Shown: piece after piece, positions 7,485 to 52,600 of the stretch | Layout: each line of letters begins with the position of its first letter | How positions within the stretch are numbered: position 1 is the first letter of the stretch | Source of the DNA: Candidatus Poribacteria bacterium | Lineage (GTDB): Bacteria; Poribacteria; WGA-4E; WGA-3G | Length of the DNA: 64,000 nucleotides | Direction: 5' to 3' | NCBI GenBank assembly: GCA_965198235.1 | Contig: OZ240248.1 | Coordinates: 1,312,001 to 1,376,000, forward strand | Translations under genes and position numbers: made by a program | Notes under the pieces: model-generated | Told to the model about the DNA's origin: nothing | The model's input: only the letters and a program-made list of their open reading frames with translations | Database searches by the model: none

Positions 7485-7624
7485 AATTCAAGTTAGGGGT
7501 CAAAGTTGCTATACAATTTGTCGTACACACTTTCGAGCAAACAGGACACGATGTGAATATTCGCGTCATTTCTGCTCGTAAAGCCACCCGAGCCGAAATC
7601 AAACAATATGAGGAATTTAACTGA
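7481..7624 (+). pseudogene. Truncated BrnT-family toxin (C-terminal remnant)
   Basis: Frame reads ...VVHTFEQTGHDVNIRVISARKATRAEIKQYEEFN*, the BrnT IRIISARKA signature; no start or N-terminus; TGA overlaps antitoxin ATG. Confidence 0.7.
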
Positions 7625-7824
7625 TGAAAGCAGAATATGATTTTTCAAAAGGTGAACGCGGTAAGTTCTACAATGCAGAAGCTGTTTTCCAAACTCCTAT
7701 CTATCTGGAAAAAGATGTTGATGACTTTATACGTCATCTTGCCGATGCCAAAGGAAAGGACGTTGGCGAACTTGTCAACGAATTGCTCCGCCGCAATATG
7801 CAGTTGATTCAGAGTATCCAATAA
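7624..7824 (+). CDS. BrnA-like / ribbon-helix-helix antitoxin
   Basis: MKAEYDFSKGERGKFY N-terminus typical of BrnT-associated antitoxins; follows toxin remnant. Confidence 0.75.
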   Translation: MKAEYDFSKGERGKFYNAEAVFQTPIYLEKDVDDFIRHLADAKGKDVGELVNELLRRNMQLIQSIQ

Positions 7825-9514: not shown

Positions 9515-9528
9515 CTGTGCATGGAATC

Positions 9529-9642
9529 GGGGTGTTTTTGCTTGGGGTGTTTTTGATAGGGTATTTCTGCGTATTGCTTGGGGTGTTTTTGCTTGGGGTT
9601 TTTGCTTGGGTGTTTCCCTGCGTATTGATAGGGTGTTTCCCC
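9529..9642 (+). repeat. G/T-rich mosaic short-unit repeat array
   Basis: Units GGGGTGTTTTTGCTT, GGGGTTTTTGATA, GGGTATTTCTGCGTATT; recurs at 13900-14101 and about eight other sites. Confidence 0.85.
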
Positions 9643-9696
9643 AATTTCCTCAATTTTCCCCTCCTACAGCAGAGGTGCCGAGGTAAGGATAACGAC

Positions 9697-10953: not shown

Positions 10954-11567
10954 CGGTCAAAATTGGATGTATTGTTGAAGGGCACGGCGAGGTAGAAGCC
11001 GTACCAATTTTGATTCGACGCTTGGCAGCGCTCCATTATCCTGAATTGACAACTGTCATTCCAACCCCTATCCGTATTTCCAGAAATAGGGTCTTTAAGG
11101 CAGGTGAACTTGAGCGTGCAGTCGGATTAGCAGTTCGGAATATCGGGAAACAAGGTGCTATATTTATCATCCTTGACAGTGATGATGACTGCCCCGCACA
11201 GCTGGGGCCCGAGCTGCTGCATCGGGCATCACAAGTTTTTCGTAATGTGCCTATTGCCGTTGTTCTTGCCAAACAAGAATTTGAAGCGTGGTTTCTTGCA
11301 GCAGCAGAATCGCTTCGTGGAAAAAGAGGTTTAAAAGAAAACCTCCGTTCTCCGAACAATCCGGAGGCAGTACGTGGTGCAAAGGAATGGTTGAACCAAC
11401 AAATGGAAAATAACAGAACATATCGTGCTAAACGAGACCAACCCGCACTCACAGCACTTTTTGACATAGAACAAGCGCGTCGCACAGATTCATTTGACAA
11501 GTGCTACCGCGACATCCTTCATCTCCTTGACGAATTACGAAAAGCAAGTGCCCCAAATAGTGTATAA
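10950..11567 (+). CDS. DUF4276 family (TOPRIM-like) protein
   Basis: IVEGHGE, ILDSDDDCP, EFEAWFLA, PE..RGAKEWL, SFDK; ATGA-coupled to the ATPase. Confidence 0.8.
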   Translation: MTVKIGCIVEGHGEVEAVPILIRRLAALHYPELTTVIPTPIRISRNRVFKAGELERAVGLAVRNIGKQGAIFIILDSDDDCPAQLGPELLHRASQVFRNVPIAVVLAKQEFEAWFLAAAESLRGKRGLKENLRSPNNPEAVRGAKEWLNQQMENNRTYRAKRDQPALTALFDIEQARRTDSFDKCYRDILHLLDELRKASAPNSV

Positions 11568-29299: not shown

Positions 29300-30748
29300 T
29301 CACATCGGTCCCACGCGCCGGGGTCCTCTGTCCATGGCAGACATGGATGCATCAAAACTCTGTTTTAAAAGTTCAAATTTGATGTCCTGTTTCGCATCGA
29401 CATGCCAGAGATTCTCAAACTCGTCCGGGTCATTGATGAGGTCGTAGAGTTCACCCTCTTCGTGTCCGTGATAAACTACTAATTTGTAACGTTCATTTCG
29501 GTACATTGTTGCGAAAGTGTGATCCGGCAGATCCACAGCGTCGTAGTACTCACATCGGACGAAATCACGGTGATGGTTCGGATCCGCTTCACCTCGGAGA
29601 ATAGGCAGGAGTGATGTGCCGTGCATCTCCTCGGGGACTGTTAAGCCTGCCAATTCCAAGAGTGTCGGTGCTTTGTCAACGAGTTCAACAAGTGCGTCAC
29701 TCTTAAGTCCGTTCGCAAACTGTCCTTGCCATGAGAAAATCAGTGGCACCCGGACCAAGCCTTCGTAAAACCTACAACCCTTTTGGATGAGCCCGTGGTC
29801 GCCGAGTGTTTCTCCATGGTCACTCGTGAAAATGATGACAGTGTTTTCCCGTTGTCCTGTTTCGTCAAGCGTTTCAAGGATCCTACCCAACTGCTCGTCA
29901 ATCAGTTGGATCATCGCGTAATAGGCAGCTATGAGTGTTTTAGCATCTCTCGCCCCGACTGCCTCTGTTTCTTGACGCGGTGTCTGCGGTAAAATTGGAC
30001 TCCGAATATCCAGTTCATCAGGTGTACGTACTTTGGATTGAAAATCAACCGCTTGGAGCCGGGTCTGCTGTTCCAGATCGCTGTTTCGGAAAAGCGGCTC
30101 TGGCATTTCCGCCGGATTGTATTGGTCTCGGTGTGTCTGTGGTGGATTGAACGGCGGATGCGGGTCGTAAATATTGACACTCGCAAGCCAAGGGCAATCC
30201 CGGTCTTCGCGAATAAACTCAATCGTCTTTTCCGCACACCATGTCGTCTGATGCAACTCCGCTGGCACACCTTCCGGATTCTGGTTCAACTCGCCTAAAA
30301 CGTATCCCTTCGTGCCGACCCAATCAGCATAGTCGTGTCCCTGTTCCCAGTCATCGCGTGGCGCATGGCTGTATTGCCAATAACGGTAACCGTCGTTTAC
30401 ACGTGGCTCCACCCGGCCGTAAGCACTCGCAAGATGAAGTTTGCCAATCAGTCCGCAATCATAACCGATGTCCGCAAGGGTGCGCGTTACAAGCGGATAC
30501 GCATCTGGAAAAAAGTCGTTTCCGTTACGAATCGCGTGTGTTGCGCTTGGGTACATACCTGTGAGAAAGCTGGCTCGGCTCGGCGTGCAGATAGGGCTTT
30601 GACAATAGGCGTATGTAAACGAGACCCCTTCCGCCACTAAATTATCAATGTTCGGTGTTGACACGGACGGGTTACCTAATGCGCCAATTGTGTCGTAACG
30701 CTGCTGATCCGTGCAAACCCAGAGGATATTTGGAGTCTTAGCAGCCAT
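29300..30748 (-). CDS. Sulfatase (Cys-type)
   Basis: PNILWVCTDQQR, CTPSRASFLTG, GKLHL, PHPPF, SDHGE.LGDHG...KG. Confidence 0.92.
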   Translation of the reverse strand: MAAKTPNILWVCTDQQRYDTIGALGNPSVSTPNIDNLVAEGVSFTYAYCQSPICTPSRASFLTGMYPSATHAIRNGNDFFPDAYPLVTRTLADIGYDCGLIGKLHLASAYGRVEPRVNDGYRYWQYSHAPRDDWEQGHDYADWVGTKGYVLGELNQNPEGVPAELHQTTWCAEKTIEFIREDRDCPWLASVNIYDPHPPFNPPQTHRDQYNPAEMPEPLFRNSDLEQQTRLQAVDFQSKVRTPDELDIRSPILPQTPRQETEAVGARDAKTLIAAYYAMIQLIDEQLGRILETLDETGQRENTVIIFTSDHGETLGDHGLIQKGCRFYEGLVRVPLIFSWQGQFANGLKSDALVELVDKAPTLLELAGLTVPEEMHGTSLLPILRGEADPNHHRDFVRCEYYDAVDLPDHTFATMYRNERYKLVVYHGHEEGELYDLINDPDEFENLWHVDAKQDIKFELLKQSFDASMSAMDRGPRRVGPM

Positions 30749-30771: not shown

Positions 30772-31149
30772 TTAGAGAAAAAAACTTTTAATAAGGGCAG
30801 CAAGGGCAATGACAGTTGGGGTGATCCACGCCGCATGCTTCCACAAGCGGACGGCAAACTCACGCTGCCCGCGCTGAAACGTGACAAGTTCCAACACTCT
30901 ATCGAGTTTCGTTTCCATACGATCCATGCGCGTTTCAAGGCGGTCCTGGCGTTTCTCTAGTGATGCGAATCGGCTATCTATTGCCTCAAACCGGGTATCT
31001 ATTGCCTCAAACCGCTGAGCTATCATCTTATCCTGTGCCTCAAACCGCTGAGACATAATCCTATCTTGTGTCTCAAACCGCTGCGCTATCATCTTATCCT
31101 GTGCCGCAAACCGCTGAGACATAATCTCTTGAAGCTCTTGGACTGTCAT
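30772..31149 (-). CDS. Small coiled-coil repeat protein with C-terminal TM helix
   Basis: 11-aa repeats (IMSQRFxAQDK/MIAQRFE), heptad RFEAIDx repeats, hydrophobic C-terminus. Confidence 0.7.
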   Translation of the reverse strand: MTVQELQEIMSQRFAAQDKMIAQRFETQDRIMSQRFEAQDKMIAQRFEAIDTRFEAIDSRFASLEKRQDRLETRMDRMETKLDRVLELVTFQRGQREFAVRLWKHAAWITPTVIALAALIKSFFL

Positions 31150-31175
31150 GAGAAATCCCCAATATCCTTCGCGCC

Positions 31176-32774
31176 CTATTTAACCTTCGCACTAAACCCG
31201 GTCCCTTTCACGATGTTCGCGAGATCGTCCGCGGTGGCGGTGTTCTTTCGGACTTTAATGACGGCTTGGTCGGGGAGAGAAACCTCAACGCTGATAACGC
31301 TTTGGTGTTGTGTAAGTGCATCCTGCACCTTGGCGACACACGCCCCTCACGTCATGCCTGTCACTACCAGCGCGACATCCTCGCTTCCCGCGGGTTCGAT
31401 CGGGACGGACATAAAGGCATTCAGTAGCTTACCGGTGGCGGTATCAAATATCCGAATCTTTCCGTCAAAGCCGCCTGTGGCGAGCTCTGTGCCGTTGGGA
31501 TGGAACGAGACCGCGAAAACACCAACTGCATCGCCTTGCATGCTTGCTAAACGCTTCCCGTTTTCCACGTTGTAGATACGGGCTTCACCGCCTCCGCTGC
31601 CAATAGCAAACCGACTGCCGTCTGCTGAAAACGCAACCCCTTCAATTGAACCCGACTGTGCTTCATACGCCTGGATGAGGTTGAAATCTGTGTTACCTAC
31701 ATCTCTCCGTATTTCGCGAAAGATTTTGTAGAGCCGCGGGATCCGATCTTCGCCAGCACTCAAAACCTGATCTTTGGTCGGGTGCCGTGCGATGGTGTTG
31801 ATTTCCCCATAACCCTTGTTACTGGAGTTGATGTCGTCAACAAAAGAGCCTGTATCTACCTCAACCAATTTGAGGGCAGTGTCGCGCCCACAACTCACGA
31901 AATGCGTGCCATCGGTGGAGAAAATCGTACCAAAAACCCAGTCACTGTGATTGTCGAATTTAATCAATTCTTTCTCGTCTTCAACCGATAGGACGCGTAC
32001 CGTCTTATCTGAGCATCCGAAAGCGACGCGACTTGCGTCTGGTGAGAAAGAGAGCCCGTACACAGTATCATAACTCGAACGCATCGCTTTGATGAGTGTG
32101 TTCGTTGCCGTATCCCATAGCTGCACTTCGCCAAATTGCGCAGGAGATCCGCCTGCCATACCTAAGATCTTTCCATCTGACGTATACATCAGCGATTCTA
32201 TGCGATGTGCTTTGCCTGCCAATCTTGCTTTGAGTTCAAAATTCGTTGTGGCATACAACAAAATTTCGCGAAATCCGGACACCGCAAGTGTGCTACCATC
32301 AGGCGAGTATGCCAGAGCAGTAACCACGGGAGGCACTACGTAGGTCGGATAGTTGCCTTCATCCATATCGTCGACTTCGGCGGGTGTGTCGTCATGCGCA
32401 CCTTCAAGAATCCAACGCCGAAACAGTTCGACCTCTTCAGCGGAGAGCGGTTCTTGGTTCTGGGGCATTGCCGGTTCATCGCCGGAGATGAGTTCAATCA
32501 TGAGACTTTCATCCGGTTGCCCGGGGACAATTGCATCGCCTGCCATTCCACCCCGTTTGAGATCTGCGTAGGTTGTCACAATCAGATCACCGTTCGGATC
32601 GCCGGGGTGATGGCATCCTTGACAACTCCGTTTGAGGATCGGAACAATCTCGGAATAGTAACTGACTGTTGAATCTGTAGCGTGCTGGTCTGCTGTTACA
32701 TACGGGCTCAACGCTACAAAACAGAGCAGATACACCCCTAAATGAATCATAAACCTTGATCGTGGTACTTTCAT
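31176..32774 (-). CDS. Planctomycete cytochrome c (PSCyt1) + WD40 + C-terminal HMA domain; probable selenoprotein (UGA at 31347-31349 read as Sec)
   Basis: CQGCH haem motif, MP..L...E...WI.EGA, WD40 repeats; after TGA the frame continues GACVAKVQDAL...GV-like..V.VSL...IVKGTGF, giving GMT-U-GAC equivalent to HMA GMTCxxC. Confidence 0.8.
31311..31346 (-). promoter_or_regulatory. Candidate bacterial SECIS hairpin
   Basis: UGA-GGGGC-GUGU..AGGUGCA-GGA-UGCACUU-ACAC; G-containing apical loop 23 nt after the UGA. Confidence 0.6.
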
Positions 32775-32857: not shown

Positions 32858-32944
32858 ATTATATCATAATTTTATAACGAAATTCAAGAAAAAATTTTGT
32901 GCCGAACATTTCGCATTGACATCTGTCACACAATACGATATACT
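32858..32944. promoter_or_regulatory. Divergent sigma70 promoters
   Basis: Minus: TTGAAT-18-TATAAT with extended TG (32858-32887); plus: TTGACA-17-TATACT (32916-32944). Confidence 0.6.
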
Positions 32945-35372: not shown

Positions 35373-35550
35373 ATCTAAGAATTTAGAGGAAGCCTATAGG
35401 ACAAGATCCATGTGTTTCTGCGGATCTGCGTATGTCCAGTTTAGGTTAGTAAGTCGGAGGACGCGCAGAAAAAGGACCCATTTTGCATGCGACAAAAAAT
35501 TCAAGTCATCTCCTCGGCTTGCACAAAAGAACAAACGACTGGAGGTAAAA

Positions 35551-38500
35551 ATGAGTTTGATACGTAGTCTGACCCGTTTTGGCGTGTTTTATAAGTCAAA
35601 ACTTGCTAATAAAAGTCTTGTCATGGCACTTCTATTTGGCATCTTGTTCCTTTTTAACGGTTGTGTCAAGATGGAGGCGACCCGGAAAGCGGATTGGGAG
35701 ACACATTTCACTGATCTGCACTTCGTCAATCATAAACAGGGCTGGATTGTTGGGCAGCAAGGGGTAATCATCCATACAACAGATCGCGGAGAGACGTGGA
35801 AGCAACAAGAAGTTGATACAACAAGCCCAGGATTTCGTCTTCCTGATGCCTCCTTGGACTTCAAGGCGGTCTATTTTACCAACGAGAACTACGGATGGGC
35901 AGTCGGCGATGAAGGGTTAGTTGCAGCTACCGACGATGGGGGTAAACACTGGACACTGCAAAAAAGCGGCACTTCCGCAATGCTCCTTGATGTCTTTTTT
36001 GCCAATTCAAAAGAAGGCTGGATTGTTGGGGAAGGTTCGGATGTCCTCTATACCGAGAACGGCGGAAAAGAGTGGAAACGTTACGAATACGTCAGCGACT
36101 TTATGCTCAACGGGGTCTGGTTCGTTAACGATTCAACAGGGTGGGTTGTCGGCACTCACGATAGAATTCTTCATACCAAAACCGGGGGCGAATCGTGGCG
36201 AGAGCAGAGCAATCGATTTGCGGGTGAGCGCGACAGGATGATCAACGACAATAAACAGGTCTTCTTCGTCAGCGATAATGAAGGTTGGATTGTCGGCAGT
36301 GACGGCTCTATCTTTCATACGAACACAGCCGGTGTAAACTGGGAACGCCAAGATAGCCGCATCCCACTGATTAATGGACACGTCCGAGATACCATCAATA
36401 GTATCCATTTCACTGATGAAAACTACGGGGTCGCTGTAGCAGATGTCGGATTTATTACCCGGACCGAAGACGGTGGCGACAACTGGCAATTGATGGAGAG
36501 CGGGACCGAAAACAATTTGACGGGGATCCATTTCACCACACCTAACGAGGCGTGGGCGGTCGGATGGTACGGCACTATTTTGCACACGACGGATGCAGGT
36601 GCGACATGGGAGATGACCAGTGGAACGACTGCGAATGACCTGCAGAACGTCCAGTTTGCCGATGCCAATCGGGCCGTCGCTGTCGGTAAGCGTGGCACCA
36701 TGGCGGTGAGCAATGATGGCGGACAAACTTGGAACGAAATTGAAACTGATATCTGGGACGGCATCTGGAATATCTATTTCGCAACTGACAAGCACGGCTG
36801 GGCAGTCGGTGATCGCGGTCTTATTGTCCATACCAATGATGGCGGTGCGAGTTGGGAACATCAGCGCGGTCCTTCCGCATTTGCACTCCGTTCTGTCCAC
36901 TTTGTGAGTCCTAAAGTCGGCTGGATCGTCGGAGATATCGGTAGTATCCTACACACAATTGACGGCGGGCAAACTTGGCTGCCGCAAACCGCAACGGGCG
37001 ATTTTCTTTCTTTGATGCTAAAGGGTGTATTTTTTCTTGACGAAAAGAAGGGATGGGCTATCGGATGGCCCGGTGTTTGCCTCACGACAGAAGACGGGGG
37101 TTTGACATGGAACCAGCAGACTACCGGCACCTTCAATGAACTCTATGCCGTTTACTTCGCAGATGAAAACACAGGGTGGATTATCGGACAGTTTGGAGAG
37201 ATTTTACATACCAAAAACGGTGGAAATAGATGGAACTTTCAACGCAGCGGCACGCAAGAAAATCTCAATAAGCTTTATTTTGCTGACGCACAGCACGGAT
37301 TGATCGTCGGTGATAACGGGGTGATGCTCACGACCGTCAACGGTGGCGCAAAATGGGAAATTCAAGAAAGCGGCACCGACAACGACCTGTACGGACTGGC
37401 TCTCTCGCCTGATGGTGTCGTCGCTGTCGGTAAAGGCGGGATTGCGATGCGTTATTCCGTTGAAGAAGCGGAATTGCCAGCGAAATTACCGCCTGTCGCT
37501 GAAGAAGTAGAGATTGTTACGGCTGAAGAGGAAACTCCTGTTGAGCCTGTTGCCTACCAGTGGGACATTATCCGTCAGGCAACTTGGCGAACGAACTTCA
37601 CCGATACGTATTTCGTAGATGCACAAAACGGATGGGCGGTCGGTTCAGGGGGCGCAATTGCACATACCACAGACGGTGGCAAGACGTGGCTCCCCCAACA
37701 CAGTGGTGTCAGTGAGGATCTGCGCCAAGTCGAATTTTCTGACGAAAAACATGGGCGAATCCTCGGATCTGGTATCTTACTTCAGACCGAAAATGGTGGT
37801 GAAACATGGCAGCCAATTCTTCAAGCAACCAAGCAGAACCTGCCACGTGTTAACACAATGCACTTCCTAAATGCCGAAGAGGGATGGCTTGGTGCAAGGA
37901 TTGGACAGACCTTGCATACGACCGATGGCGGCAAGACATGGAAAATCCAAAAGACCGGAACGACAACGGCAAACATCACCGATCTCCACTTTGTCAATAG
38001 TCAAGAGGGATGGGCAGTCACACCTCAACGTCGGGATGGTGGGTTTATTCTCCAGACCGTTGACGGTGGCGATTATTGGAAAATTCAGGCGAAAACGAAT
38101 CAACCCGGTATTGCTGTCCATTTCGCTGACGAAAATCGCGGTTGGGTAATTCTCGGCAACGGCAACTCTTTGTTGACTGAGGACGGTGGTGAAACATGGA
38201 AATTGCAGACCACGACACGGAGCACACCCGGCTTGCGACGCATCACCTTCCATTCGCATACCAACGCTTGGGGACTCGGTGGTGGTGGTGCTTATGTCAC
38301 CGAGGATCAGGGGTTGACTTGGAAGGCGGTTCCTGTTGATACAGGAGGTGGTGCAGGCGATAACATGTTCGCCATGGAAGAATTCAATCCACTGTTACCC
38401 GAAGAATCCGAAGAACCCGAAGAAGTGGAAGAAAAGGTTTCGGAGGGACCGACGCTAACTTACGACGAGACACCGGAGGAAATTCAAAATCGGTTGCGAG

Positions 38501-39660
38501 CGCAGTGGCAACGTCCAGGACGTTTCGCTCCTGAGGGTGAACTCCCGCCTAACGCCGAGCGGGCGACCCCTCCGACAGCGCAGAGGCAGCAACAACCACC
38601 TCCACCACCAGAACCTGAAGGACGCCGCAGACGCGGGGCACGCCGAATCGCCAACGTATACTTCTTGGATGCAGAGCACGCATGGGCTGTTGGAAGTGGC
38701 GGCAGTATCTACCACACCGCAGACGGGGGCGAGACATGGGAACGTCAGCTCGGTGAACAGCAGCGCAATGACTTCCGAGAGGTCCTCTTCTATGATGACA
38801 AAAACGGTTGGATCGCAGGAGACGGCGGTGTGCTATTGGAAACCCAAGATGGTGGACAGACATGGGAGACACTCCGAAGCCGGACGCGTCAACGTCTCAT
38901 CGGGGTACACTTTGCCAGTCTTGAACCCGAAAAATGGGGGTGGGCAATGCAACGCGACGGAACTGTCCTCTATACGACAGATGGCGTGACTTGGACAGCC
39001 GGAGATACACCTGAGCAACCGCCTTTCATGGAAGGCGATCCACCCGGTACATTCTCGCTGAACGATGTTGAATTCGGTAAGTTTTCTGAAGGCTGGGCAG
39101 TGGGTAGACTCGGATATATCATCCATAACAAAGATGGCGGTCCCACATGGACACCGCAACGCACCACTGCAAACGACACACTTATGGATGTGGATATGAA
39201 ATTCGCACCCCTCGGTTGGGCAGTTGGACAAGGCGGGGTAACCCAACGCACCATCAATGGGGGTGAGTATTGGCGGATGCACGAAACCAAGTCGAATTAC
39301 GATCTCTATGCCGTCTCTTTTATTGCCAAGCGGACAGGATGGGCGGCTGGCGAAGCGGGTATCGTCCTGAAGACGACTGATGGTGGTTTTACGTGGCAAC
39401 CTACGTTGACTGGGGTTACCAAGAACCTACACGGCATCATCGCACTCTCCGAACAGGAGATCTACGCCGTCGGTGAAGAAGGAACGATCGTTCGTTCAAC
39501 CGATGGCGGTGAAACGTGGGAACAGGAGCACACCGATATCGACAACAATCTCTATGTCATCACCCGTTCCAAGGACGGTAAGGCGTTGTGGGTTGTCGGA
39601 CAATGGGGGGTCGTCCTGCGTCGAAAATTAGAGACACCCGTGCGGATGTCAATGCGTTAA
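35551..39660 (+). CDS. YCF48-like / BNR Asp-box multi-beta-propeller lipoprotein
   Basis: More than 25 repeats of F.D...GW.VG..G.I.HT.DGG.TW; lipobox FNGC; GGAGG RBS at 35551; Pro/Glu-rich linkers. Confidence 0.88.
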   Translation: MSLIRSLTRFGVFYKSKLANKSLVMALLFGILFLFNGCVKMEATRKADWETHFTDLHFVNHKQGWIVGQQGVIIHTTDRGETWKQQEVDTTSPGFRLPDASLDFKAVYFTNENYGWAVGDEGLVAATDDGGKHWTLQKSGTSAMLLDVFFANSKEGWIVGEGSDVLYTENGGKEWKRYEYVSDFMLNGVWFVNDSTGWVVGTHDRILHTKTGGESWREQSNRFAGERDRMINDNKQVFFVSDNEGWIVGSDGSIFHTNTAGVNWERQDSRIPLINGHVRDTINSIHFTDENYGVAVADVGFITRTEDGGDNWQLMESGTENNLTGIHFTTPNEAWAVGWYGTILHTTDAGATWEMTSGTTANDLQNVQFADANRAVAVGKRGTMAVSNDGGQTWNEIETDIWDGIWNIYFATDKHGWAVGDRGLIVHTNDGGASWEHQRGPSAFALRSVHFVSPKVGWIVGDIGSILHTIDGGQTWLPQTATGDFLSLMLKGVFFLDEKKGWAIGWPGVCLTTEDGGLTWNQQTTGTFNELYAVYFADENTGWIIGQFGEILHTKNGGNRWNFQRSGTQENLNKLYFADAQHGLIVGDNGVMLTTVNGGAKWEIQESGTDNDLYGLALSPDGVVAVGKGGIAMRYSVEEAELPAKLPPVAEEVEIVTAEEETPVEPVAYQWDIIRQATWRTNFTDTYFVDAQNGWAVGSGGAIAHTTDGGKTWLPQHSGVSEDLRQVEFSDEKHGRILGSGILLQTENGGETWQPILQATKQNLPRVNTMHFLNAEEGWLGARIGQTLHTTDGGKTWKIQKTGTTTANITDLHFVNSQEGWAVTPQRRDGGFILQTVDGGDYWKIQAKTNQPGIAVHFADENRGWVILGNGNSLLTEDGGETWKLQTTTRSTPGLRRITFHSHTNAWGLGGGGAYVTEDQGLTWKAVPVDTGGGAGDNMFAMEEFNPLLPEESEEPEEVEEKVSEGPTLTYDETPEEIQNRLRAQWQRPGRFAPEGELPPNAERATPPTAQRQQQPPPPPEPEGRRRRGARRIANVYFLDAEHAWAVGSGGSIYHTADGGETWERQLGEQQRNDFREVLFYDDKNGWIAGDGGVLLETQDGGQTWETLRSRTRQRLIGVHFASLEPEKWGWAMQRDGTVLYTTDGVTWTAGDTPEQPPFMEGDPPGTFSLNDVEFGKFSEGWAVGRLGYIIHNKDGGPTWTPQRTTANDTLMDVDMKFAPLGWAVGQGGVTQRTINGGEYWRMHETKSNYDLYAVSFIAKRTGWAAGEAGIVLKTTDGGFTWQPTLTGVTKNLHGIIALSEQEIYAVGEEGTIVRSTDGGETWEQEHTDIDNNLYVITRSKDGKALWVVGQWGVVLRRKLETPVRMSMR

Positions 39661-44605: not shown

Positions 44606-46930
44606 TTATCGCAATGTTTTCAACTGTCCCCATGTGGATATCTCCTTACCAGCAGCACCGACATGCCCTTTCAGGCGGATGCCACGGGTCAAGGTCTGAT
44701 GATTCCCGTCAAGAGAGACCTCCTCTATCTGGTAGTAGTAGACGACGTTGGGTTGAGCAGTTGTATCCGTGTAGGTATAGAACTGCTTCTCGCTGGTCGT
44801 GCCTGCGCCAGGGACCATGGTTGCGTTGATGACCTTGAACTGTCCGTCTCGTTGCTGACTCCGCTTGATAAAGAATCCAGCGTTGTTCAACTCCGATTGC
44901 GTAGACCAAGTAATCACCACTGCGCCAGTCGCCTTATCACGGGCAGGACGGAAGTGCGAAAGCTCGACGGGCAACGCACCACCAGCACGGAATCCGGGTG
45001 TGCCGACATCAATCGGTAAGCCGTAGTAACTGCGTGCGCTCAGATGCATCTGTTGTGCGAAACTCGTATCAGAGGCGAGCACCCAAGAATCCATCAGCGT
45101 GCCGTCTTTCGGTTCCGCGGGACCCACAGAAACGGGAACGTGTCTACGGATAATCGAGCTACGTGCACCATCTTCGTCTATCGGTAGTGCCCACATCGCA
45201 GTGCCATCCTCAGAAACCAGGTTGCCAACCACATCCATTGCCGCGGCGCGAGCGGCTGCCTGTCCAATAAATACAGCCGTAACCGGCGGTGCAAGCGTTA
45301 TTTTGAACGCCGTCCCGCTCATCAACGAATAACGGCGTTTGGAAATACCCAACAGAATCAGTTCATACAGTTGATCCGTCCAGAGATTGACGACCTGACC
45401 GTCTGCCAGCCAGCCGTCAAGGTTATTACGTCCCTGTGCGGTGACAACGAGAACGGTTGACGGGGTATCGTGCTGTCCACTCGGATCAATCTTTGTGCCT
45501 TCCGGGATCGTGAATACCGCCTTCGCACCGATACTCACATCGACATCAGCAGCGTCGTTCTCGACTGTCAGCGTCCAACCACCCAGGTTCACCTGCTCTG
45601 TCCGGGAACCGTTGGAAATCTCAATCCACTGTGGCAATCTGCCACCCCCAGCGAACATAATCTCGCTGATGTAGATTTGACCTTCCTCCGGTATCATCAC
45701 GGAAGCATCTGCGGCTGTCGCATCGGCATCAGCAGTCGCCTTTTCCGCAGCTGCGGAGTCTATGCCGGAGCCAGCCTTATCTTTGACAGGAATGTCGTGT
45801 CCAGCTGTGCTGTTCGCATCAGTGATCTTTACATCATCGTCGTGTGGCAGGGATAGCGTAACCCCTGTTCCGGGTGGCATCGTGGTTGTCGCTACCGCAA
45901 GTCTGAGTTGCTCACGCCCGTTCGGCTTGTTCGCTACACCGAACGGCTTATACACATTCACGAATGGGGAAGCACCATCATGGAACTCCTTGAGACTGAT
46001 CTTCACCGTATCCACTCTGCGATGCGGCGTAATCGTCACACGGTACTGATGATACATATTATCCGTGCCAGTGGGCATAGGAACGTTCATAGCATCCGCA
46101 CCTGGTGCCACACCGGCCAAACCATCATCGGCCTCTCCACTGTGCACGTACATTCCCTCAGACGGATGCGGCAGAATCGTCGAATCCGCATCTCCCTGTG
46201 CATTCGCTCGTCGTGCGAAGGGGACACCTACGACCAAGTTGCTGGCTGTTCCACCTTCAACGTTAATCTTATCAAGTGTCAGACCGCCGTCAGGTTTCTC
46301 GGTGAGCACAATCCGCACGTCAAAGGCACCCGTAACTTTCTCCTCTTGGAAAGCACTGACGACCGCTTGGCTACTCGGGCGCAACCGCTGGATGGAAACC
46401 ACGTTCGGGCGATCAGTATTTACCGGTATGGGACCCATTAAATTAAACGACAGGGAACCCTCTTTACTCGTCTGCTCTTCATTAGGAGTAAGACGTTTGA
46501 CACCCGCTTTTATGTACAGATGAACTTTTCTGTCATCTGCATCAGTGCTGGCGGCAGCAATAGTAAACGCGAAGGTTTTCCTATCCGTTTGAACTCCACC
46601 AACGGCAGCATTGATGTCCTTTATGCTAATTTCTGATGTCGATCCAGCACCCGCTTGCCCGGTGCCATCAGTTGTTGCTGGAACAGCAAGAGCAGTTCGA
46701 ACACCGTTCTTATCTTCAACGTGAACAATGATAAACGCCCTCTCAGCAGTTGTAAGTGCTACTTCCTCAGCAAATGTAAGCGTAACGACGATATCTGTGC
46801 CGTATTGCTTGTTAATAACGCTAAATGTGGCATCGAAGTCATCAGCCGCCATCGCGGAAGGCACCACGAAAGCAAGAACAAATATTGTGATTAAACGCAT
46901 TAACGAAAATGCCATTTTCTTTGACAACAT
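44606..46930 (-). CDS. Lamin-tail-domain secreted surface protein, paralog A (internally deleted relative to B)
   Basis: MLSKKMAFSL signal; IYISEIMF...QWIEI.N...V.L.GWTL; GTPG; LPVELSHF; C-terminal WGQLK. Confidence 0.8.
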   Translation of the reverse strand: MLSKKMAFSLMRLITIFVLAFVVPSAMAADDFDATFSVINKQYGTDIVVTLTFAEEVALTTAERAFIIVHVEDKNGVRTALAVPATTDGTGQAGAGSTSEISIKDINAAVGGVQTDRKTFAFTIAAASTDADDRKVHLYIKAGVKRLTPNEEQTSKEGSLSFNLMGPIPVNTDRPNVVSIQRLRPSSQAVVSAFQEEKVTGAFDVRIVLTEKPDGGLTLDKINVEGGTASNLVVGVPFARRANAQGDADSTILPHPSEGMYVHSGEADDGLAGVAPGADAMNVPMPTGTDNMYHQYRVTITPHRRVDTVKISLKEFHDGASPFVNVYKPFGVANKPNGREQLRLAVATTTMPPGTGVTLSLPHDDDVKITDANSTAGHDIPVKDKAGSGIDSAAAEKATADADATAADASVMIPEEGQIYISEIMFAGGGRLPQWIEISNGSRTEQVNLGGWTLTVENDAADVDVSIGAKAVFTIPEGTKIDPSGQHDTPSTVLVVTAQGRNNLDGWLADGQVVNLWTDQLYELILLGISKRRYSLMSGTAFKITLAPPVTAVFIGQAAARAAAMDVVGNLVSEDGTAMWALPIDEDGARSSIIRRHVPVSVGPAEPKDGTLMDSWVLASDTSFAQQMHLSARSYYGLPIDVGTPGFRAGGALPVELSHFRPARDKATGAVVITWSTQSELNNAGFFIKRSQQRDGQFKVINATMVPGAGTTSEKQFYTYTDTTAQPNVVYYYQIEEVSLDGNHQTLTRGIRLKGHVGAAGKEISTWGQLKTLR

Positions 46931-47070
46931 TCGTTTAATCCCCCCGTGACCCTCTTCTGTAGGAGCGACCTCCTGGTCGCGATCTTCTGTTCGTAGTAGT
47001 GCGATTCATCGCACGTTCCCAAATCACAGTTCAGACAATTACTGACAACCGATAACTAACAACTACTAAA

Positions 47071-47114
47071 AAACAAAACGGGGTAATGTCGCTAAGGACA
47101 CTACCCCGTCTTGT
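47071..47114 (-). terminator. Intrinsic terminator of paralog B
   Basis: GACGGGGTAGTGTC-loop-GACATTACCCCGTTTTGTTTTT; compensatory changes versus 55815-55858. Confidence 0.75.
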
Positions 47115-47171
47115 GGTTAAGGTTAGTTCAAACAAATTTTATCCCTGAAATAACCTTGTTGTTCCTACTAC

Positions 47172-50100
47172 TTATTGCGATGTCTTCAATTCTCCCCACG
47201 TCAGCGTGGCTTTACCGGCGACACTCACATGCCCTTTCAGGCGCATGCCGCGGGTCAGCGTCTGACGATTACCATCGAGAGATACATCTTCAATCTGGTA
47301 GTAGTATACGACGTTGGGTTGAGCAGTTGTATCCGTGTAGGTATAGAACTGCTTTTCACTCGTTGTGCCTGCACCAGCGATCATTGCCGCGTTGATGACT
47401 TTGAACTCGCCGTCTTTTTGCTGACTCCGCTTGATGAAGAATCCAGCGTTGTTCAGCTCAGATTGCGTAGACCAGGTAATCACCACTGCGCCAGTCGCCT
47501 TATCACGGGCAGGACGGAAATGTGAAAGTTCAACAGGCAACGCACCACCAGGACGGAATCCGGGTGTGCCGACATCGCTTTGTGCGCCGTAGTAACTCGC
47601 GGCACGGATGTGCGTCGGTTGCGCGAAACTCGTATCGGATGCGAGTGCCCAATTCATCATCATCGTGCCATCTTCGGGTTCCGCAGCACCGACAGAGACT
47701 TGGACGTGTCCACGAATAATCGAGCTACGTCCGTCCTCACTCATCGGCAATGCCCATGCGGCAGCACCATCAGCACCGAGGTTACCCACGATATCCGTCG
47801 CTTCTGCGCGTTCCTTCGCGGCTTTGGCATCAGCGGCGGCCTTGGCGGCTGCAGCTGCGCGCGCGGCTGCGATTTCGGCTGCCGTTGTTGGCGCGGCTGC
47901 TTTCTTCGCTGGAGCTTCAATCGGCACCGGGGGGGCGAGCGTTATTTTGAACGCCATACCGCTCAACAACGAATAGCGAGGTTTCAGAACACCTGCTATG
48001 ATCAGGTCAATCTCGGTCGTAGACCCTGGTTGATTCAGGACCATAACCTGACTCCTTGCCTTCGCGCCCGTAAGGTTGTTACGTCCTCTTTCGGTCACGA
48101 GGAGCAGCGTTGACGGGGTATCGTCCTGTCCACTCATATCGATCTTCGTGCCTTTCGGGATCTCGAAAGTTACTGAACCGACACTCACATCGGTATCGGC
48201 TGCAGCGTTATCGACCGTCAGCGTCCAACCGCTCAGGTCGACCTCTTCTGACCGCGAACCGTTGGAGATCTCAATCCACTGTGGGAGCGTCCCACCGCCA
48301 GCGAACATAATTTCGCTGATGTAGATTTTACCGACCATCGGCATCGAGACAGAAGTATCTGCTGCTTTTGCGGCTGTTGCGGCTGCGGCAGCAGCTTTCG
48401 CTTTTGCTGCTGCTACTATAGCTGCGGCTTCAGAAGGACTAATGACACGTGTGGAACCCGGTGAAGCATCGTATTTACCTTCAAGACCTAACTTGAAGTT
48501 GACGCTTGGCGATGTCGACTGCATCCAACTACCTGCTACCGTACCGTTTGCGGGCATCATCGCGCCTGCTGCTGCACCTACTGTTGTATCTGCCACCATC
48601 CCACGATACATAGAAGCAAGCTGCTGTATCGGTGCGATTGCAGCGACATCTGCGGTACCTGCGTCAACCCCAGATCTTCCACTCTGACCTTTACCGGCGA
48701 TTGACCAGTAAATATCCGCTGTGGTCCCTGTTGTTGCGGGTGCGATAACGGTTCCAGCAAATGTTTTCGTACCGACCCGGTCAACGAGCACACCCGCTGT
48801 GCCATCATCCTTCACGTATGTCGCACGAGGGGTCTCGTTCGCTTGATAGAACCACAACGCCCATTTATTTTCACCAATCTCAATAGCGGCTGTGGTCGCA
48901 TTGGCAATCTCAATCCATTGGCTGTTTGTGGCATCAGCGGTTTGGCTGGCATCGGTGCCCCACATCACTTCACTGATATAGGCGGCTCCCGCTGCTGTGC
49001 CATCGTATGCCACGAGGTCAATCGTGCCATTATTGGCGAGGAACGTCTCTAAGTTCGGCAGACTCCCCGATGCCCTGACATTGTATAACAATTGGGCAGG
49101 CGTCTGCTTATGGGGGACATTCTCTACTTTCGTCTTATCCGCCGCATCTACCTCGTCCGAGAAATCTATGCCGGAACCAGCCTTATCCTTCGTAAGGATG
49201 TAGTGCCCAGCCGTGTCCGCGTAAGTGATCATTGCAGCTTCGCCGTGCGGCAGGTAAAACATAAACCCTGCACCGAGTGCAGCAAGGTCTGTCGCTACGG
49301 CGAGTCTGAGTTGCTCACGCCCGTTCGGCTTGTTCGCTACATTAAAAGGCTTATACACATTCGGAAACGGTACAGCATTATCATGGAATTCCTTGATACT
49401 GATTTTCACCATATCCACTCTGCGATGTGGCGTAATCGTCACACGATACTGATGATACATACTATCAGGACCCGTAGTCAGCGGGACAAATGTGTGATCG
49501 GTAAGACTTGGTGAACTCACCTCACCTAGCGCACCAACTAAAGCGTCGTCACCATCGTGAGCATACATACCCTCAATTGGATGGGGTCTATACGTGCTTG
49601 CCAACTGATCAGCGGTAGGCTCATCAGCGAGCGTATCTCCGAGCCGCGAGAAGGGCACACCTACGACCAAGTTGCTGGCTGTTCCACCGTCAACCTCAAT
49701 GTGAGCAAGTTTAAATTCATGCGGCAACTCGGTGAACACGATCTTAACGTCAAAGGCACCCGTAACTTTTTCCTCTTGGAAAGCAGAGACGACTGTTTGG
49801 CTACCCGGACGCAACCGTTGGATAGAAACCACGTTCGGACGATCAGTATTTACCGGTATGGGACCGATCAAATCAATACTCGCTGAAGCCTTTTTGCTCG
49901 TCTTCGCTTCCTCAGGGACAAAACGGGCAACACCTGCTGGTATGAACAGATGAATTTTTCTGTCATCCATATCAGTGCTTTCGGCATCAATAGTAAACAC
50001 GAACTGTTTTCTATCCGTTTGATCGCCGGTAACAGCAAGGTTGATGTCCTTCGCGCTAATTTCTGATGTTGATGTAGCACTAGCATCTGGCGGGTTGTCA

Positions 50101-50381
50101 CCAACTGCTGTAATTGTTGTGGGGACAGTGATAGCAGTTCGAACACCGTTCTTATCTTCAATATGAACGGTAATTATCCTTGTCTCTGCCTCCTGTATAT
50201 TTGCAAGCGGTACTTCCTCTTTAAAAGTAATCGTAACCTCGATATCTGTGGCATAGGTTGTATTAACAACGCTAAATTCGGCATCGAAGTCGTCAGCCGC
50301 TATCGCAGAAGGCACCACGAAAGCAAGAGCGAGAATTGTTATTAGACTCATTAACGAAAATGCCATTTTCTTTGACAACAT
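47172..50381 (-). CDS. Lamin-tail-domain secreted surface protein, paralog B
   Basis: Signal peptide; two ISE.M..QWIE domains; Ala/Lys-rich linkers; LPVELSHF; C-terminal WGELK. Confidence 0.85.
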   Translation of the reverse strand: MLSKKMAFSLMSLITILALAFVVPSAIAADDFDAEFSVVNTTYATDIEVTITFKEEVPLANIQEAETRIITVHIEDKNGVRTAITVPTTITAVGDNPPDASATSTSEISAKDINLAVTGDQTDRKQFVFTIDAESTDMDDRKIHLFIPAGVARFVPEEAKTSKKASASIDLIGPIPVNTDRPNVVSIQRLRPGSQTVVSAFQEEKVTGAFDVKIVFTELPHEFKLAHIEVDGGTASNLVVGVPFSRLGDTLADEPTADQLASTYRPHPIEGMYAHDGDDALVGALGEVSSPSLTDHTFVPLTTGPDSMYHQYRVTITPHRRVDMVKISIKEFHDNAVPFPNVYKPFNVANKPNGREQLRLAVATDLAALGAGFMFYLPHGEAAMITYADTAGHYILTKDKAGSGIDFSDEVDAADKTKVENVPHKQTPAQLLYNVRASGSLPNLETFLANNGTIDLVAYDGTAAGAAYISEVMWGTDASQTADATNSQWIEIANATTAAIEIGENKWALWFYQANETPRATYVKDDGTAGVLVDRVGTKTFAGTVIAPATTGTTADIYWSIAGKGQSGRSGVDAGTADVAAIAPIQQLASMYRGMVADTTVGAAAGAMMPANGTVAGSWMQSTSPSVNFKLGLEGKYDASPGSTRVISPSEAAAIVAAAKAKAAAAAATAAKAADTSVSMPMVGKIYISEIMFAGGGTLPQWIEISNGSRSEEVDLSGWTLTVDNAAADTDVSVGSVTFEIPKGTKIDMSGQDDTPSTLLLVTERGRNNLTGAKARSQVMVLNQPGSTTEIDLIIAGVLKPRYSLLSGMAFKITLAPPVPIEAPAKKAAAPTTAAEIAAARAAAAAKAAADAKAAKERAEATDIVGNLGADGAAAWALPMSEDGRSSIIRGHVQVSVGAAEPEDGTMMMNWALASDTSFAQPTHIRAASYYGAQSDVGTPGFRPGGALPVELSHFRPARDKATGAVVITWSTQSELNNAGFFIKRSQQKDGEFKVINAAMIAGAGTTSEKQFYTYTDTTAQPNVVYYYQIEDVSLDGNRQTLTRGMRLKGHVSVAGKATLTWGELKTSQ

Positions 50382-50556
50382 TCGTTCAATCTCCTTGTTC
50401 TTATGGAATAAAATTTTAAACTTAAACCTAAAACCTCACGGAAGGGAAAAAATGGAAAAGTAATCTTTTTCATGTCTTGCCTCCGCTTATGTACAAAATA
50501 AGAACGGATCCAGGGATTGTAAACCCATTCCTCATTTGAACCTAACCTTTTGCACA
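50300..50556 (-). repeat. Long inverted repeat, left copy (leader plus signal-peptide coding); partner 52346-52600
   Basis: Near-identical reverse complement of 52346-52600. Confidence 0.92.
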
Positions 50557-50695
50557 TAATGTAACTTACACATTATGTGCTGTTTTCAAGGGTTGCTAAT
50601 CGATGCGGCTCTAAGAGTGACTCTTAATGTGTGAAAACATCGCGTTTCAACTCATAATGTGCCAAAATATCGCGTTTCAACCCTTTACACAGTTA

Positions 50696-50724
50696 ATTCT
50701 ACCCTATTAAACGCTATTTGTCAA
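50696..50724 (-). promoter_or_regulatory. Strong sigma70 promoter for paralog B
   Basis: TTGACA-17bp-TAGAAT with upstream A/T tracts (50730-50810). Confidence 0.75.
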
Positions 50725-50824
50725 ATTAAAATTACAAAAAAACGCACTTTTTTGCGAAAAAACGCATAATTCGTCAAAAAAAGTGCGAAATTCGCAAAAA
50801 AAGTGTAAAATGGAGTATTGGTTG

Positions 50825-51310
50825 TCGTCAGAACTGTGATTTTTCTGATTTACTGAGTGGAAGAAGTCAGAACTGTGATTTCTGTGATTTCTGGGATGTG
50901 CCGTGATTGGGAAATTTTCAGAACTGTGATTTGTGGGATTTCTGGGATGTGCCGTGATGTAGAAAACGGTGTATCTAAGCAACCCCACCCCGTAGGGGTG
51001 CTATGTCTATAGAAAACGGTGTATCCAACCAAACGCACCCCGTAGGGGTGCTATGTCTATAAATAAGTGGCAACCTGCGTTACATTAATATATATTAAAG
51101 GAACCGAAGGTGGGGTATTATCTACAGCAGTTTCGTAGCGGAAACCCTCATCACAGAAATCACATCATCAGAAAAATCACAGTTCAGACAGCGGTTTTGC
51201 GGATAAGGCGGGTTAGAGGGGGGAGGTGCTGATAACGCCTGTCTTCTGTAGGAGCGACCTCCTGGTCGCGATCCACCTGTTTGTAGTAGTGCGATTCATC
51301 GCACGTTCTT
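50825..51310. repeat. Repeat cluster (AATCAC periodic repeats, CACCCCGTAGGGGTG palindromes, REP doublet)
   Basis: 41-bp duplication 50868-50908/50918-50958; 50-bp duplication 50985-51060. Confidence 0.7.
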
Positions 51311-51371
51311 ATGCACCCCTGTCCCCCTGATAAGGGGGATTGAGAGGGTTGGGGGGTTACTGACCCCTACT

Positions 51372-51493
51372 AACAAAAGCAGATAACGGGAGAGTTCCCT
51401 ATACTCCCCCGCTACCCTTTTAGTTTAATCAAATGGAGGAGATTAGTGTCGTCCTCAGGACAGGTTAAGTTTAGCCTCATTCCAGGAGGTTAA
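51372..51493 (-). ncRNA. Candidate small RNA with anti-Shine-Dalgarno tract
   Basis: Own promoter TTGACA-17-GATAAT (51499-51527), two hairpins, UAAUCUCCUCC tract, GC-rich terminator plus U-run (51375-51421). Confidence 0.5.
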
Positions 51494-51766
51494 CCTTAAT
51501 TATCCAATTTCTACGGAAAAATGTCAAGGGGCAAGTCTTGTGCCTTCAGGGCTATTTAGTTTTAGGTGCTTTATCCAATTGAGCCGAAAAGTCGCGAGCG
51601 GGAGCTCGTTTCCCCAGGTCTTGTGCCTGCGCACCCAAGAACCATTGTAGGGGGTTTTTGCTTGGGGATTTCCCCAGGTCTTGTGCCTGCCCGTTCCCTT
51701 GTGCCTGCCCTATATACAGTATATATAAGGAGCACACCATATATACCTACATATAAGGAGCATACC

Positions 51767-52183
51767 ATGTCAAACGAAATCTATCTCTCCGTCGCCCAAG
51801 CCGCCGATCTACTGGGCATCTCGCAAGAAACCCTCTACAAAGAAATTCAATCTGGGAACCTTACCGCGACAGAGAACCCGGACCAAAAACGGAAGCATAA
51901 AGTCATCGCCGTCAGCGAACTCTCGCGCCTCTACGGTAAGATATGCATCCCTGACGGGTATCTCGAATACTCCGGGGATAAGTCAGTTGATTTTGTGAGG
52001 GTTGCGCTCCGACAAGAGAATGAGAGGCTCCGTAAGGCGTTGGAAGAGACCCAGAATCGCGAGCGGAATCTCAATGAGCAGCTCAAGACCGCACTTCAAA
52101 ACCACAAAACGCTTATCGAGACCCACGCAGATCTCACCAAAACCATCGATAATTTAACCACTGTGCTGGATAAAATGACCTAA
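51767..52183 (+). CDS. Excisionase/MerR-like helix-turn-helix protein with C-terminal coiled coil
   Basis: LSVAQAADLLGISQETLYKEIQSGNL; LRQENERLR coiled coil; AAGGAG RBS. Confidence 0.8.
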   Translation: MSNEIYLSVAQAADLLGISQETLYKEIQSGNLTATENPDQKRKHKVIAVSELSRLYGKICIPDGYLEYSGDKSVDFVRVALRQENERLRKALEETQNRERNLNEQLKTALQNHKTLIETHADLTKTIDNLTTVLDKMT

Positions 52184-52345
52184 ATTCTTTCTTGTTTGTA
52201 AAACACCTGCTATTTTACAGAGAATCCCTCCGGAATTACAATTTTTTGAAATACCTCCCGGCCCTCCCTCGTCTCGGTAGGCGCGGTTTGTAACTGGAAG
52301 CCTCACACTTCCGATTCTCGCCGCTCCTGGCCGAATTTAACCTTT

Positions 52346-52600
52346 TGTGCAAAAGGTTAGGTTCAAATGAGGAATGGGTTACAATCCCTGGATCCGTTCT
52401 TATTTGTACATAGACGGAGGCAAGACATGAAAAAGATTACTTTTCCATTTTTTCCCTTCCGTGAGGTTTTAGGTTTAAGTTTAAAATTTTATTCCATAAG
52501 AACAAGGAGATTAAACGAATGTTGTCAAAGAAAATGGCATTTTCGTTAACAAGTCTAATAACAATTTTTGCGCTTGCCTTCGTGGTGCCTTCCGCAATGG
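52346..52600 (+). repeat. Long inverted repeat, right copy
   Basis: Reverse complement of 50300-50556. Confidence 0.92.

Follow-up and report, generated by a model that had tools for sequence, protein, structure and literature searches.

The stretch of DNA analyzed here, referred to below as the window, comprises 64,000 nucleotides of contig OZ240248.1 (positions 1,312,001 to 1,376,000) in the Candidatus Poribacteria assembly GCA_965198235.1, and it contains on its reverse strand a gene with an in-frame TGA that appears to encode an exported selenocysteine (Sec) protein. Under translation table 11 the open reading frame (ORF) occupies 31347..32774 (-), starts with ATG at 32774 and ends with ...VALVVTGMT followed by TGA at 31349-31347. 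The same frame continues beyond the TGA for another 56 codons, GACVAKVQDALTQHQSVISVEVSLPDQAVIKVRKNTATADDLANIVKGTGFSAKVK (GACVAKVQDAL...GFSAKVK), up to a TAG at 31178-31176. A preliminary description, made from the sequence alone, had reported this extension and had proposed that a cytochrome c-WD40 protein with a Sec-containing heavy-metal-binding domain is hidden by the annotated stop; coordinates and sequence proved to be as described there. The full selenoprotein gene would thus span 31176..32774 (-), with the ATG at 32772-32774, 532 codons and the TAG at 31176-31178.

The predicted product consists of four parts. Residues 1-28 (32691..32774, -) resemble a signal peptide of the Sec secretion type, read by eye from the sequence as MKVPRSR, a hydrophobic core and VTA/DQ. 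Residues 51-104 (32463..32624, -) match PSCyt1, the Planctomycete cytochrome c domain of Pfam (PF07635; 40.4 bits, cut-off 22), and carry the haem motif C51-Q-G-C54-H55 at 32610-32624, and by both score and CxxCH motif the domain belongs to the PSCyt1 family. In an alignment of 60 sequences including 20 distant relatives C51, C54, H55, M103 and P104 were invariant. Domains with c-type haem mature outside the cytoplasm, and the signal peptide agrees with this. The third part, residues ~150-460 (31395..32327, -), is a WD40-type beta-propeller (Pfam WD40 PF00400, 101 bits); many further WD40 propeller families match it as well, and its profile matches in the PDB are WD40 proteins. Finally, residues ~466-532 (31179..31379, -) correspond to an HMA domain (PF00403, dN/dS 0.15, i.e., the ratio of nonsynonymous to synonymous substitution rates) with the motif G-M-T-U476-G-A-C479. 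The in-frame TGA (31347..31349, -) is its codon 476, the predicted Sec at the first Cys position of GMTCxxC.

The assignment of the HMA domain depends on both sides of the TGA. Translating the TGA as Cys gives residues 462-532 a score of 37.5 bits against PF00403 (cut-off 24.8, E 3e-9), which places them in the HMA family, and the profile puts the TGA on the first Cys of GMTCxxC, just as had been claimed. The HMA piece deprived of its GMT-U part yields only 23.1 bits and falls under the same cut-off of 24.8. Residues on both sides of the TGA therefore form one HMA domain, and this argues against the simplest alternative, namely that the TGA is a true stop, the product has 475 residues and the 56 codons beyond are either a decaying relic or a separate ORF of 50 aa starting from GTG483.

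Comparison with related loci gave further evidence on this point. A contig scan with one genome per species returned 216 relatives, and the best 80 of these 216 were fetched (L001-L080, 69-94% identity); 78 have titles naming Poribacteria and 2 are labeled 'uncultured bacterium'. Together with the window they make up the 81 sequences considered below, all of them distinct at the nucleotide level. In tblastn searches with the read-through protein residues 1-532 were covered in most of the 80 loci, the matches crossing the stop up to residue 532. Directly behind GMT, 80/80 loci have TGA and then xxC, and none has TAA, TAG or a Cys codon there; with the window included the TGA is present in 81/81. 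The same codon at all 80 loci means that the TGA is not peculiar to this assembly, a point on which the preliminary description had made its proposal depend. As a side observation, part of the gene's 3' end, TGA included, occurs once more in locus L048, at 6836-7657, located after an N run inside a sulfatase ORF; this second copy looks like an artefact of scaffold joining rather than a true tandem duplication.

A plain stop codon would be expected to drift as the others do. The terminal stop of the selenoprotein gene is TAG in 58 sequences, TAA in 21 and TGA in 2, that of the downstream sulfatase is TAA in 51, TGA in 14 and TAG in 7, and that of the neighboring DNA methylase is TAG in 30, TAA in 16 and TGA in 8, all of these stops lying at conserved positions. 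Codon 476 alone is fixed as TGA while the genuine stops drift among the three stop codons.

The sequence downstream of the TGA was then found to evolve as protein-coding. Beyond the TGA, 80 of the 81 sequences keep the frame open over 56 codons and the remaining one over 57, despite a synonymous divergence (dS) of ~1. Estimates from 400 random sequence pairs gave a dN/dS of 0.068 (dS 1.53) for codons 30-475 and 0.154 (dS 0.97) for codons 477-532; without the codons that form the hairpin discussed below, the latter value was 0.134 (dS 1.21). The 56 codons past the TGA are under purifying selection. Particularly informative are codons 477-482, which precede GTG483, the codon chosen by annotators as the start of the separate 50-aa ORF, and thus lie ahead of any restart: their dN/dS is 0.121 (dS 0.79), and Cys479 is invariant, being encoded by TGT in 46 sequences and by TGC in 35. 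This constraint, together with the invariant Cys479, rules out both the relic and the independently translated fragment. The UGA is, in other words, conserved in the orthologues with coding conservation on both sides, as expected of a selenoprotein gene.

The public databases give at first sight a different picture, one that a true stop would produce. The best protein matches are named Candidatus Poribacteria, and among the best 120 database homologues (71-93% identity) 119/120 end in GMT, the sole other end being that of P0094, whose C-terminus differs and looks frameshifted. Ends in ...GMT in 119/120 homologues indicate that gene callers cut them all at the same residue, although gene callers would yield exactly such ends at a true stop as well. 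A search with the 71-residue C-terminal piece returned 22 proteins, of which 16 (P0272-P0286, P0288) are clusters of 50-55-aa 'hypothetical proteins' from Poribacteria beginning at or near GTG483. Three of these short fragments were fetched, and all were the downstream piece of the selenoprotein gene called from GTG483 or nearby. It can also be said in favor of a true stop that the wider PSCyt1-WD40 family is devoid of HMA, and a product of 475 residues would resemble this ancestral architecture. Given the fixed TGA, the open and constrained frame and the HMA domain that needs residues from both sides of the TGA, we regard a true stop at this codon as highly improbable.

The other 6 of the 22 proteins are HMA proteins of 97-120 aa with a signal sequence ending in ...LMVGC, and they share 54-57% identity with 93-97% of the query. 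Two of them (P0289 and P0290, Candidatus Poribacteria according to NCBI) have the sequence VTGMTCGACVAKVQGAL, with Cys at the Sec position (GMTCGAC), while the other four (P0287, P0291, P0292, and P0293) read VTGMTWGACVAKVQDAL with a predicted W at this site. P0289 and P0292 are 78% identical. Solved HMA domains, namely ATP7A/B, CopZ (1cpz), MerP (1afi), and MerA (2kt2), likewise carry Cys at the aligned site. The UGA thus aligns with Cys in P0289/P0290, in the Pfam HMA profile and in the solved domains. The conserved pairing of TGA and Cys in homologues, for which a tblastn search had been suggested beforehand, was in this way recovered, with TGA in 80/80 loci and Cys in the stand-alone P0289 and P0290.

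The W forms have to be considered in view of a further alternative, according to which a suppressor or near-cognate tRNA (Trp, Cys, Gly), or a local or genome-wide change of the code, accounts for the read-through of the UGA, and not Sec. Apart from the W predicted at the site in P0287, P0291, P0292, and P0293, it speaks for this alternative that Sec insertion is here an inference. However, the W forms carry another W right after ...AKVSE, where the Cys forms end, and both Ws are probably TGA codons translated under a TGA=Trp gene call, so that they look unlike real Trp. This suggests, as far as the protein sequences tell, that some public metagenome gene calls on Poribacteria contigs used the TGA=Trp code. 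The neighboring genes mentioned above end in TGA at conserved positions in the same genomes, and so TGA is an ordinary stop there, with no general reassignment; in the window itself 8/42 frames with at least 200 codons between stops end in TGA. Moreover, the site is that of a metal-ligand Cys for which Cys forms exist, and a W or G would destroy the motif. The constraint at the RNA level, described next, falls on a hairpin with the geometry of a bacterial Sec insertion sequence (bSECIS), and SelA, SelB and SelD have been reported for Poribacteria in the tables of PMC5649159. Read-through by means other than Sec thus appears very unlikely to us.

A short hairpin follows the TGA at the expected distance. 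The core GTGCAGGATGCAC (GUGCA-GGA-UGCAC) lies at 31316-31328, and the stem lengthens to 7 bp in the putative bSECIS hairpin at 31314..31330 (-), with a 3-nt loop GGA at 31321-31323 and 23 nt from the UGA to the loop. According to the bSECIS model given in PMC13188914, the apical loop has 3-9 nt, the upper stem 4-16 bp, a G stands at loop position 1 or 2, the UGA-loop distance is 16-37 nt and the minimum free energy (MFE) is <= -7.5 kcal/mol. In the folded 20-nt hairpins the loop had 3 nt in 79/81 sequences and 5 nt in 2, with stems of 5-8 bp. At the three loop columns 56 sequences have GGA, 15 have GGG, 9 have GGC and 1 has GGU, and a G was found within the first two loop positions in 81/81, in L065 at the second position (loop UGGAU). 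Loop, stem, G and the 23-nt spacing all lie within the published geometry. The hairpin of the window folded alone had -7.1 kcal/mol (z = -3.7), a value matched by 1/200 shuffles, and the first 50 nt fold at <= -7.5 kcal/mol in 81/81, a level that the hairpin by itself reaches in 8/81. The motif GTGCAGGNTGCAC occurs at a single site in the window and likewise in 77/80 loci; the three loci without the exact motif (L041, L042, and L065) have single substitutions, with pairing kept in two of the three. A lower stem of TGTGT with ACACA that would extend the hairpin was also considered and rejected, since the free choice of TGT or TGC at Cys479 breaks its pairing.

The decisive evidence for constraint on the hairpin at the RNA level comes from synonymous sites. 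Fourfold-degenerate columns in which the amino acid is conserved number 167, and their mean third-position entropy is 1.39 bits. The two least variable among them are V483 (GTG in 81/81) and A486 (GCA in 80/81), with L487 ranking eighth, while Q484 (CAG in 79/79 of those with Gln) and K482 (AAA in 72/73 of those with Lys) are the two least variable of 116 twofold columns. The codons K482, V483, Q484, A486, and L487 all form the hairpin, and codon bias is no explanation because elsewhere in the gene the codons for Val and Ala show free variation. The amino-acid variation at D485 (GAT, GGT, GCT, GTT) lands on the third loop base. In addition, T475 (31350-31352), the codon preceding the UGA, is ACG in 76/81 and ranks as the third least variable of the 167 fourfold columns, a constancy that may reflect a context effect on Sec decoding. 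The SECIS-like hairpin of the preliminary description is accordingly present where it had been placed, fits the published geometry and contains frozen synonymous sites. Such sites can serve to locate a SECIS where the stem is too conserved for covariation tests.

A number of observations weigh against the interpretation as a selenoprotein. The hairpin is a short one; folded by itself it has a median MFE of -7.4 kcal/mol and reaches -7.5 in only 8/81, and the 50-nt MFE structure includes the core hairpin in 63/81. Folds of longer segments do not surpass those of shuffled sequences (z = 0.04 at 83 nt, 0.01 at 54 nt). Covariation was barely testable in the 42 of the 81 sequences used for it, where 3/7 pairs never vary; 13/500 shuffles reach the observed covariation score, and 334/500 reach the number of pairs seen to differ on both sides. 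In stem pairing 97.6% of the cells pair, with one compensatory change, A-U to G-C, in 3/42 sequences, and covariation cannot decide because the stem hardly varies. Rfam gave nothing relevant, either for the whole window at gathering thresholds or for 31100-31450 at E up to 10. Neither tRNA-Sec nor selA, selB or selD turned up in the window or in those flanks that were covered: a Pfam scan of 37 window ORFs showed no such domains, and ARAGORN found 0 tRNAs, both in the window and in the 60 of 80 loci scanned. Lastly, neither a Cys form nor an annotated read-through of the whole fusion was seen in the best 120 proteins or the 80 loci. Among proteins of 292-931 aa in a collection of 5.8 billion sequences none matches residues 463-532, and for this reason we conclude that no annotated read-through form exists there. 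That Cys or HMA-less orthologues are missing from the best 120 proteins and from the best 80 of the 216 relatives is not an artefact of ranking, because such proteins would score at least as well.

Regarding the Sec machinery elsewhere in these genomes, Table S4 of PMC5649159 lists COG counts for SelA/SelB/SelD of 2/1/1 in Ca_Poribacteria_WGA3G, 2/1/1 in bin70 and 4/1/2 in bin44, the two bins being Candidatus Poribacteria according to Table 2 of the same source. All three proteins are thus listed for 3/3 Poribacteria genomes, and the source reports no tRNA-Sec. WGA-3G is also the genome of locus L045, a carrier of the TGA gene. SelA and SelB are further stated to co-occur in most sponge-symbiont bins (PMC5649159), and Poribacteria are named among the phyla with Sec-containing group 4 hydrogenases (PMC13582414). 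A crude ORF-TGA-ORF scan for other selenoprotein candidates in the window produced noise only. Considering the conserved TGA, the coding sequence beyond it, the RNA-constrained hairpin and the alignment with the first metal-binding Cys of HMA, all established by the comparison, we put the probability that a single gene of 532 codons encodes an exported selenoprotein here at roughly 85%. The central proposal of the preliminary description is thereby borne out, with TGA in 81/81, Cys in P0289/P0290 and a constrained hairpin.

The likely course of events in such a gene can be outlined as follows. SelB with Sec-tRNA(Sec) would bind the hairpin with its GGN loop 23 nt after the UGA and insert Sec, and translation would then run on to the TAG at 31176. 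The signal peptide would direct the protein to the periplasm, where C51xxC54H55 would receive haem c, M103 probably serving as its sixth ligand. The WD40 propeller may act as a binding platform, and the C-terminal ferredoxin-like HMA domain would present the U476-x-x-C479 pair. By analogy with the two-Cys proteins MerP and CopZ, the most likely chemistry, to which we give about an even chance, is binding of a soft metal such as Cu(I) or Hg(II) by the selenolate/thiolate pair. Selenium could offer tighter and faster binding as well as resistance to over-oxidation in the oxidizing periplasm, and the neighboring haem could supply or remove electrons.

It is also conceivable that Sec is inserted and that U476-x-x-C479 is instead a redox centre (selenylsulfide/selenol) of a periplasmic oxidoreductase wired to the haem. 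The c-type haem in the same polypeptide would suit such a function, and reviews such as PMC9312934 regard the majority of prokaryotic selenoproteins bearing UxxC or CxxU motifs as probable redox proteins. On the other hand, the fold is that of HMA and not of thioredoxin, and its best matches, ATP7A/B, CopZ, MerP and the N-terminal domain of MerA, bind Cu(I)/Hg(II). The full metal-binding signature GMTxxxC is conserved together with a GF motif near the C-terminus, and the known Sec-bearing relatives of the HMA fold are filed under metal handling. We thus believe that a redox centre is a possible but clearly less probable function than metal binding.

With respect to known systems, Sec in an HMA-type motif is already known; what is new is the union of such a domain, in one exported protein, with a PSCyt1 cytochrome c and a WD40 propeller. 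In the Sec-containing P-type ATPase the UxxC pair presumably lies in the N-terminal HMA domain of the pump. That is a cytoplasmic domain of a membrane pump, whereas the domain described here is the C-terminal end of an exported protein without an ATPase part. The two have in common that Sec replaces the first Cys of a CxxC metal motif, and the listings in PMC9312934 and PMC13188914, where the E1-E2 cation-transporting P-type ATPase (COG2217/TIGR01525) appears as a UxxC selenoprotein, put it in the heavy-metal handling group. A putative mercuric reductase (PRK13748) with UxxU is likewise listed as a selenoprotein (PMC9312934). These entries in the two reviews (PMC9312934, PMC13188914), together with NCBIfam NF041115, agree with the remark of the preliminary description that Sec-HMA domains had been described before.

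The family NF041115 (UxxU_metal_bind, 'metal-binding (seleno)protein') is similar in being a small Sec-carrying HMA-like module, and its profile aligns with residues 463-531. However, the domain described here scores 38.7 bits where the cut-off is 95, has UxxC and not UxxU as its motif, and is fused rather than stand-alone, which leaves it outside the family. MerP and CopZ/Atx1 share the HMA fold family and the GMTCxxC signature, and MerP is periplasmic too, but these proteins use two Cys and are free-standing or parts of pumps, in contrast to the C-terminal part of a 532-residue protein. The scores for CopZ (NF033794, 42.7 vs. 95 bits) and MerP (TIGR02052, 29.6 vs. 92.55 bits) exclude membership in these families as well. 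The Sec-HMA domain thus stands outside the NF041115, CopZ and MerP families and, by analogy, very likely works like them.

Closer relatives are found in Poribacteria. The stand-alone HMA proteins mentioned above share ...VTGMT-x-GACVAKVQ[DG]AL with the selenoprotein, but they are lipoprotein-like proteins of 97-120 aa with their own signal, while here the domain is fused to the cytochrome and WD40 parts. For the rest of the chain, PSCyt1-WD40 proteins without HMA (for example P0123, P0124, P0127, and P0132; 36-52% identity) have the CxxCH cytochrome and the propeller and can be aligned up to about residue 460; in contrast to the selenoprotein they have ~450-510 aa and end a few residues past a VPVPI motif. 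The motif G[MLIV][TSHD]CxxC was found in none of the 150 listed representatives of PSCyt1-WD40; generic WD40 proteins dominated this all-against-all search of representatives, and the relatives it brought up were all HMA-less. Because this wider family shows no HMA motif among those representatives, the HMA(Sec) module looks like an addition made within Poribacteria to a widespread HMA-less PSCyt1-WD40 family.

In the literature, none of the terms PF00403, PF07635, propeller, Planctomyc-, Poribacteria and sponge came up in term searches of a 2026 review. Searches for Poribacteria with selenocysteine or selenoproteins, and for Sec together with HMA or WD40-cytochrome c, returned nothing on this protein, and none of the top-ranked publications on PSCyt1 pairs it with selenocysteine. 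The protein is conserved throughout a candidate phylum of sponge symbionts, and nearly every public annotation truncates it (119/120 homologues). The corrected gene would add to the prokaryotic selenoproteome a selenoprotein family with a new architecture, that of exported haem c, WD40 and Sec-HMA. It would also provide a concrete use for the Sec machinery, which is enriched in sponge symbionts according to Slaby et al., and a first functional handle, in the form of metal or redox chemistry outside the cytoplasm, on the large and uncharacterized PSCyt1-WD40 family.

A more far-reaching possibility, which we consider doubtful, is that the UGA acts as a selenium-gated switch between two products and that the longer one is part of a periplasmic haem-selenium relay reducing and capturing soft metals or metalloids in sponge tissue. 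When selenium is scarce, termination at the UGA would leave a cytochrome c-WD40 protein of 475 residues, i.e., the ancestral architecture without HMA, and when selenium is present, Sec insertion would add the selenolate head. If true, such a haem-selenium device for metal handling would have no described counterpart.

Concerning the genes around it, the selenoprotein gene heads a row on the same strand that comprises an ORF of 125 aa, a sulfatase, a DNA methylase, a 304-aa gene of unknown function, a PSCyt2-PSD1 protein and a DUF1501 protein. In the 80 loci the sulfatase is kept in 73, the methylase in 54, the 304-aa gene in 71, the PSCyt2-PSD1 gene in 71 and the DUF1501 gene in 68. The sulfatase (29300..30748, -) comes directly after the HMA stop in 73/80 loci, its start lying at a median of 196 nt from the TGA and, in most loci, ~22 nt past the HMA stop. 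In the window the gaps at the first two junctions are 26 and 23 nt, and further on they are 118-427 nt. A scan of the (-) strand found no terminator-like site between the selenoprotein gene and the sulfatase, and co-transcription of the two is plausible. Upstream of the ATG, a candidate promoter-like site TTGAAT-18-TATAAT was picked out at 32858..32887 (-) by a consensus scan only.

The ORF of 125 aa between the selenoprotein gene and the sulfatase (30772-31149, -) encodes a coiled-coil protein with a hydrophobic C-terminus and is present in only 13/80 loci, for which reason it looks like an insertion into the operon. It contains a tandem 33-nt repeat at 31003-31118, with 3.5 copies of QRFEAQDKMIAQRFE-like units. 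The methylase (N6/N4 DNA methylase, PF01555, 28376-29167, -) belongs to the conserved same-strand row, and no partner restriction gene was identified.

The preliminary description had also taken the fusion to link the DUF1501/DUF1549 systems to metal handling. The DUF1501/DUF1549 genes lie 4.8-7.4 kb downstream on the same strand in 71 and 68 of the 80 loci, and the sulfatase, the DNA methylase and the unknown gene stand between them and the selenoprotein gene. All loci come from one phylum, and the shared gene order may therefore reflect only relatedness. Direct support for the link was not found, and the neighborhood is all that speaks for it.

The window has further features. At 9517-11567 (+) an AAA_21/AAA_15 ATPase gene (9517-10953) overlaps by 4 nt the gene of a DUF4276 protein (10950-11567). 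Possibly a defence-type pair, this module has a PhyH dioxygenase on one side and a sulfatase on the other. A protein of 1416 aa with ~12 Ycf48/BNR-like repeats is encoded at 35410-39660 (+), and three large Lamin Tail Domain proteins (774, 1069, and 1080 aa) are encoded within 44606-55761. The Ycf48/BNR-like and Lamin Tail proteins, along with the sulfatases, an FGE-sulfatase enzyme and LamG proteins, are typical of the gene content of Poribacteria.

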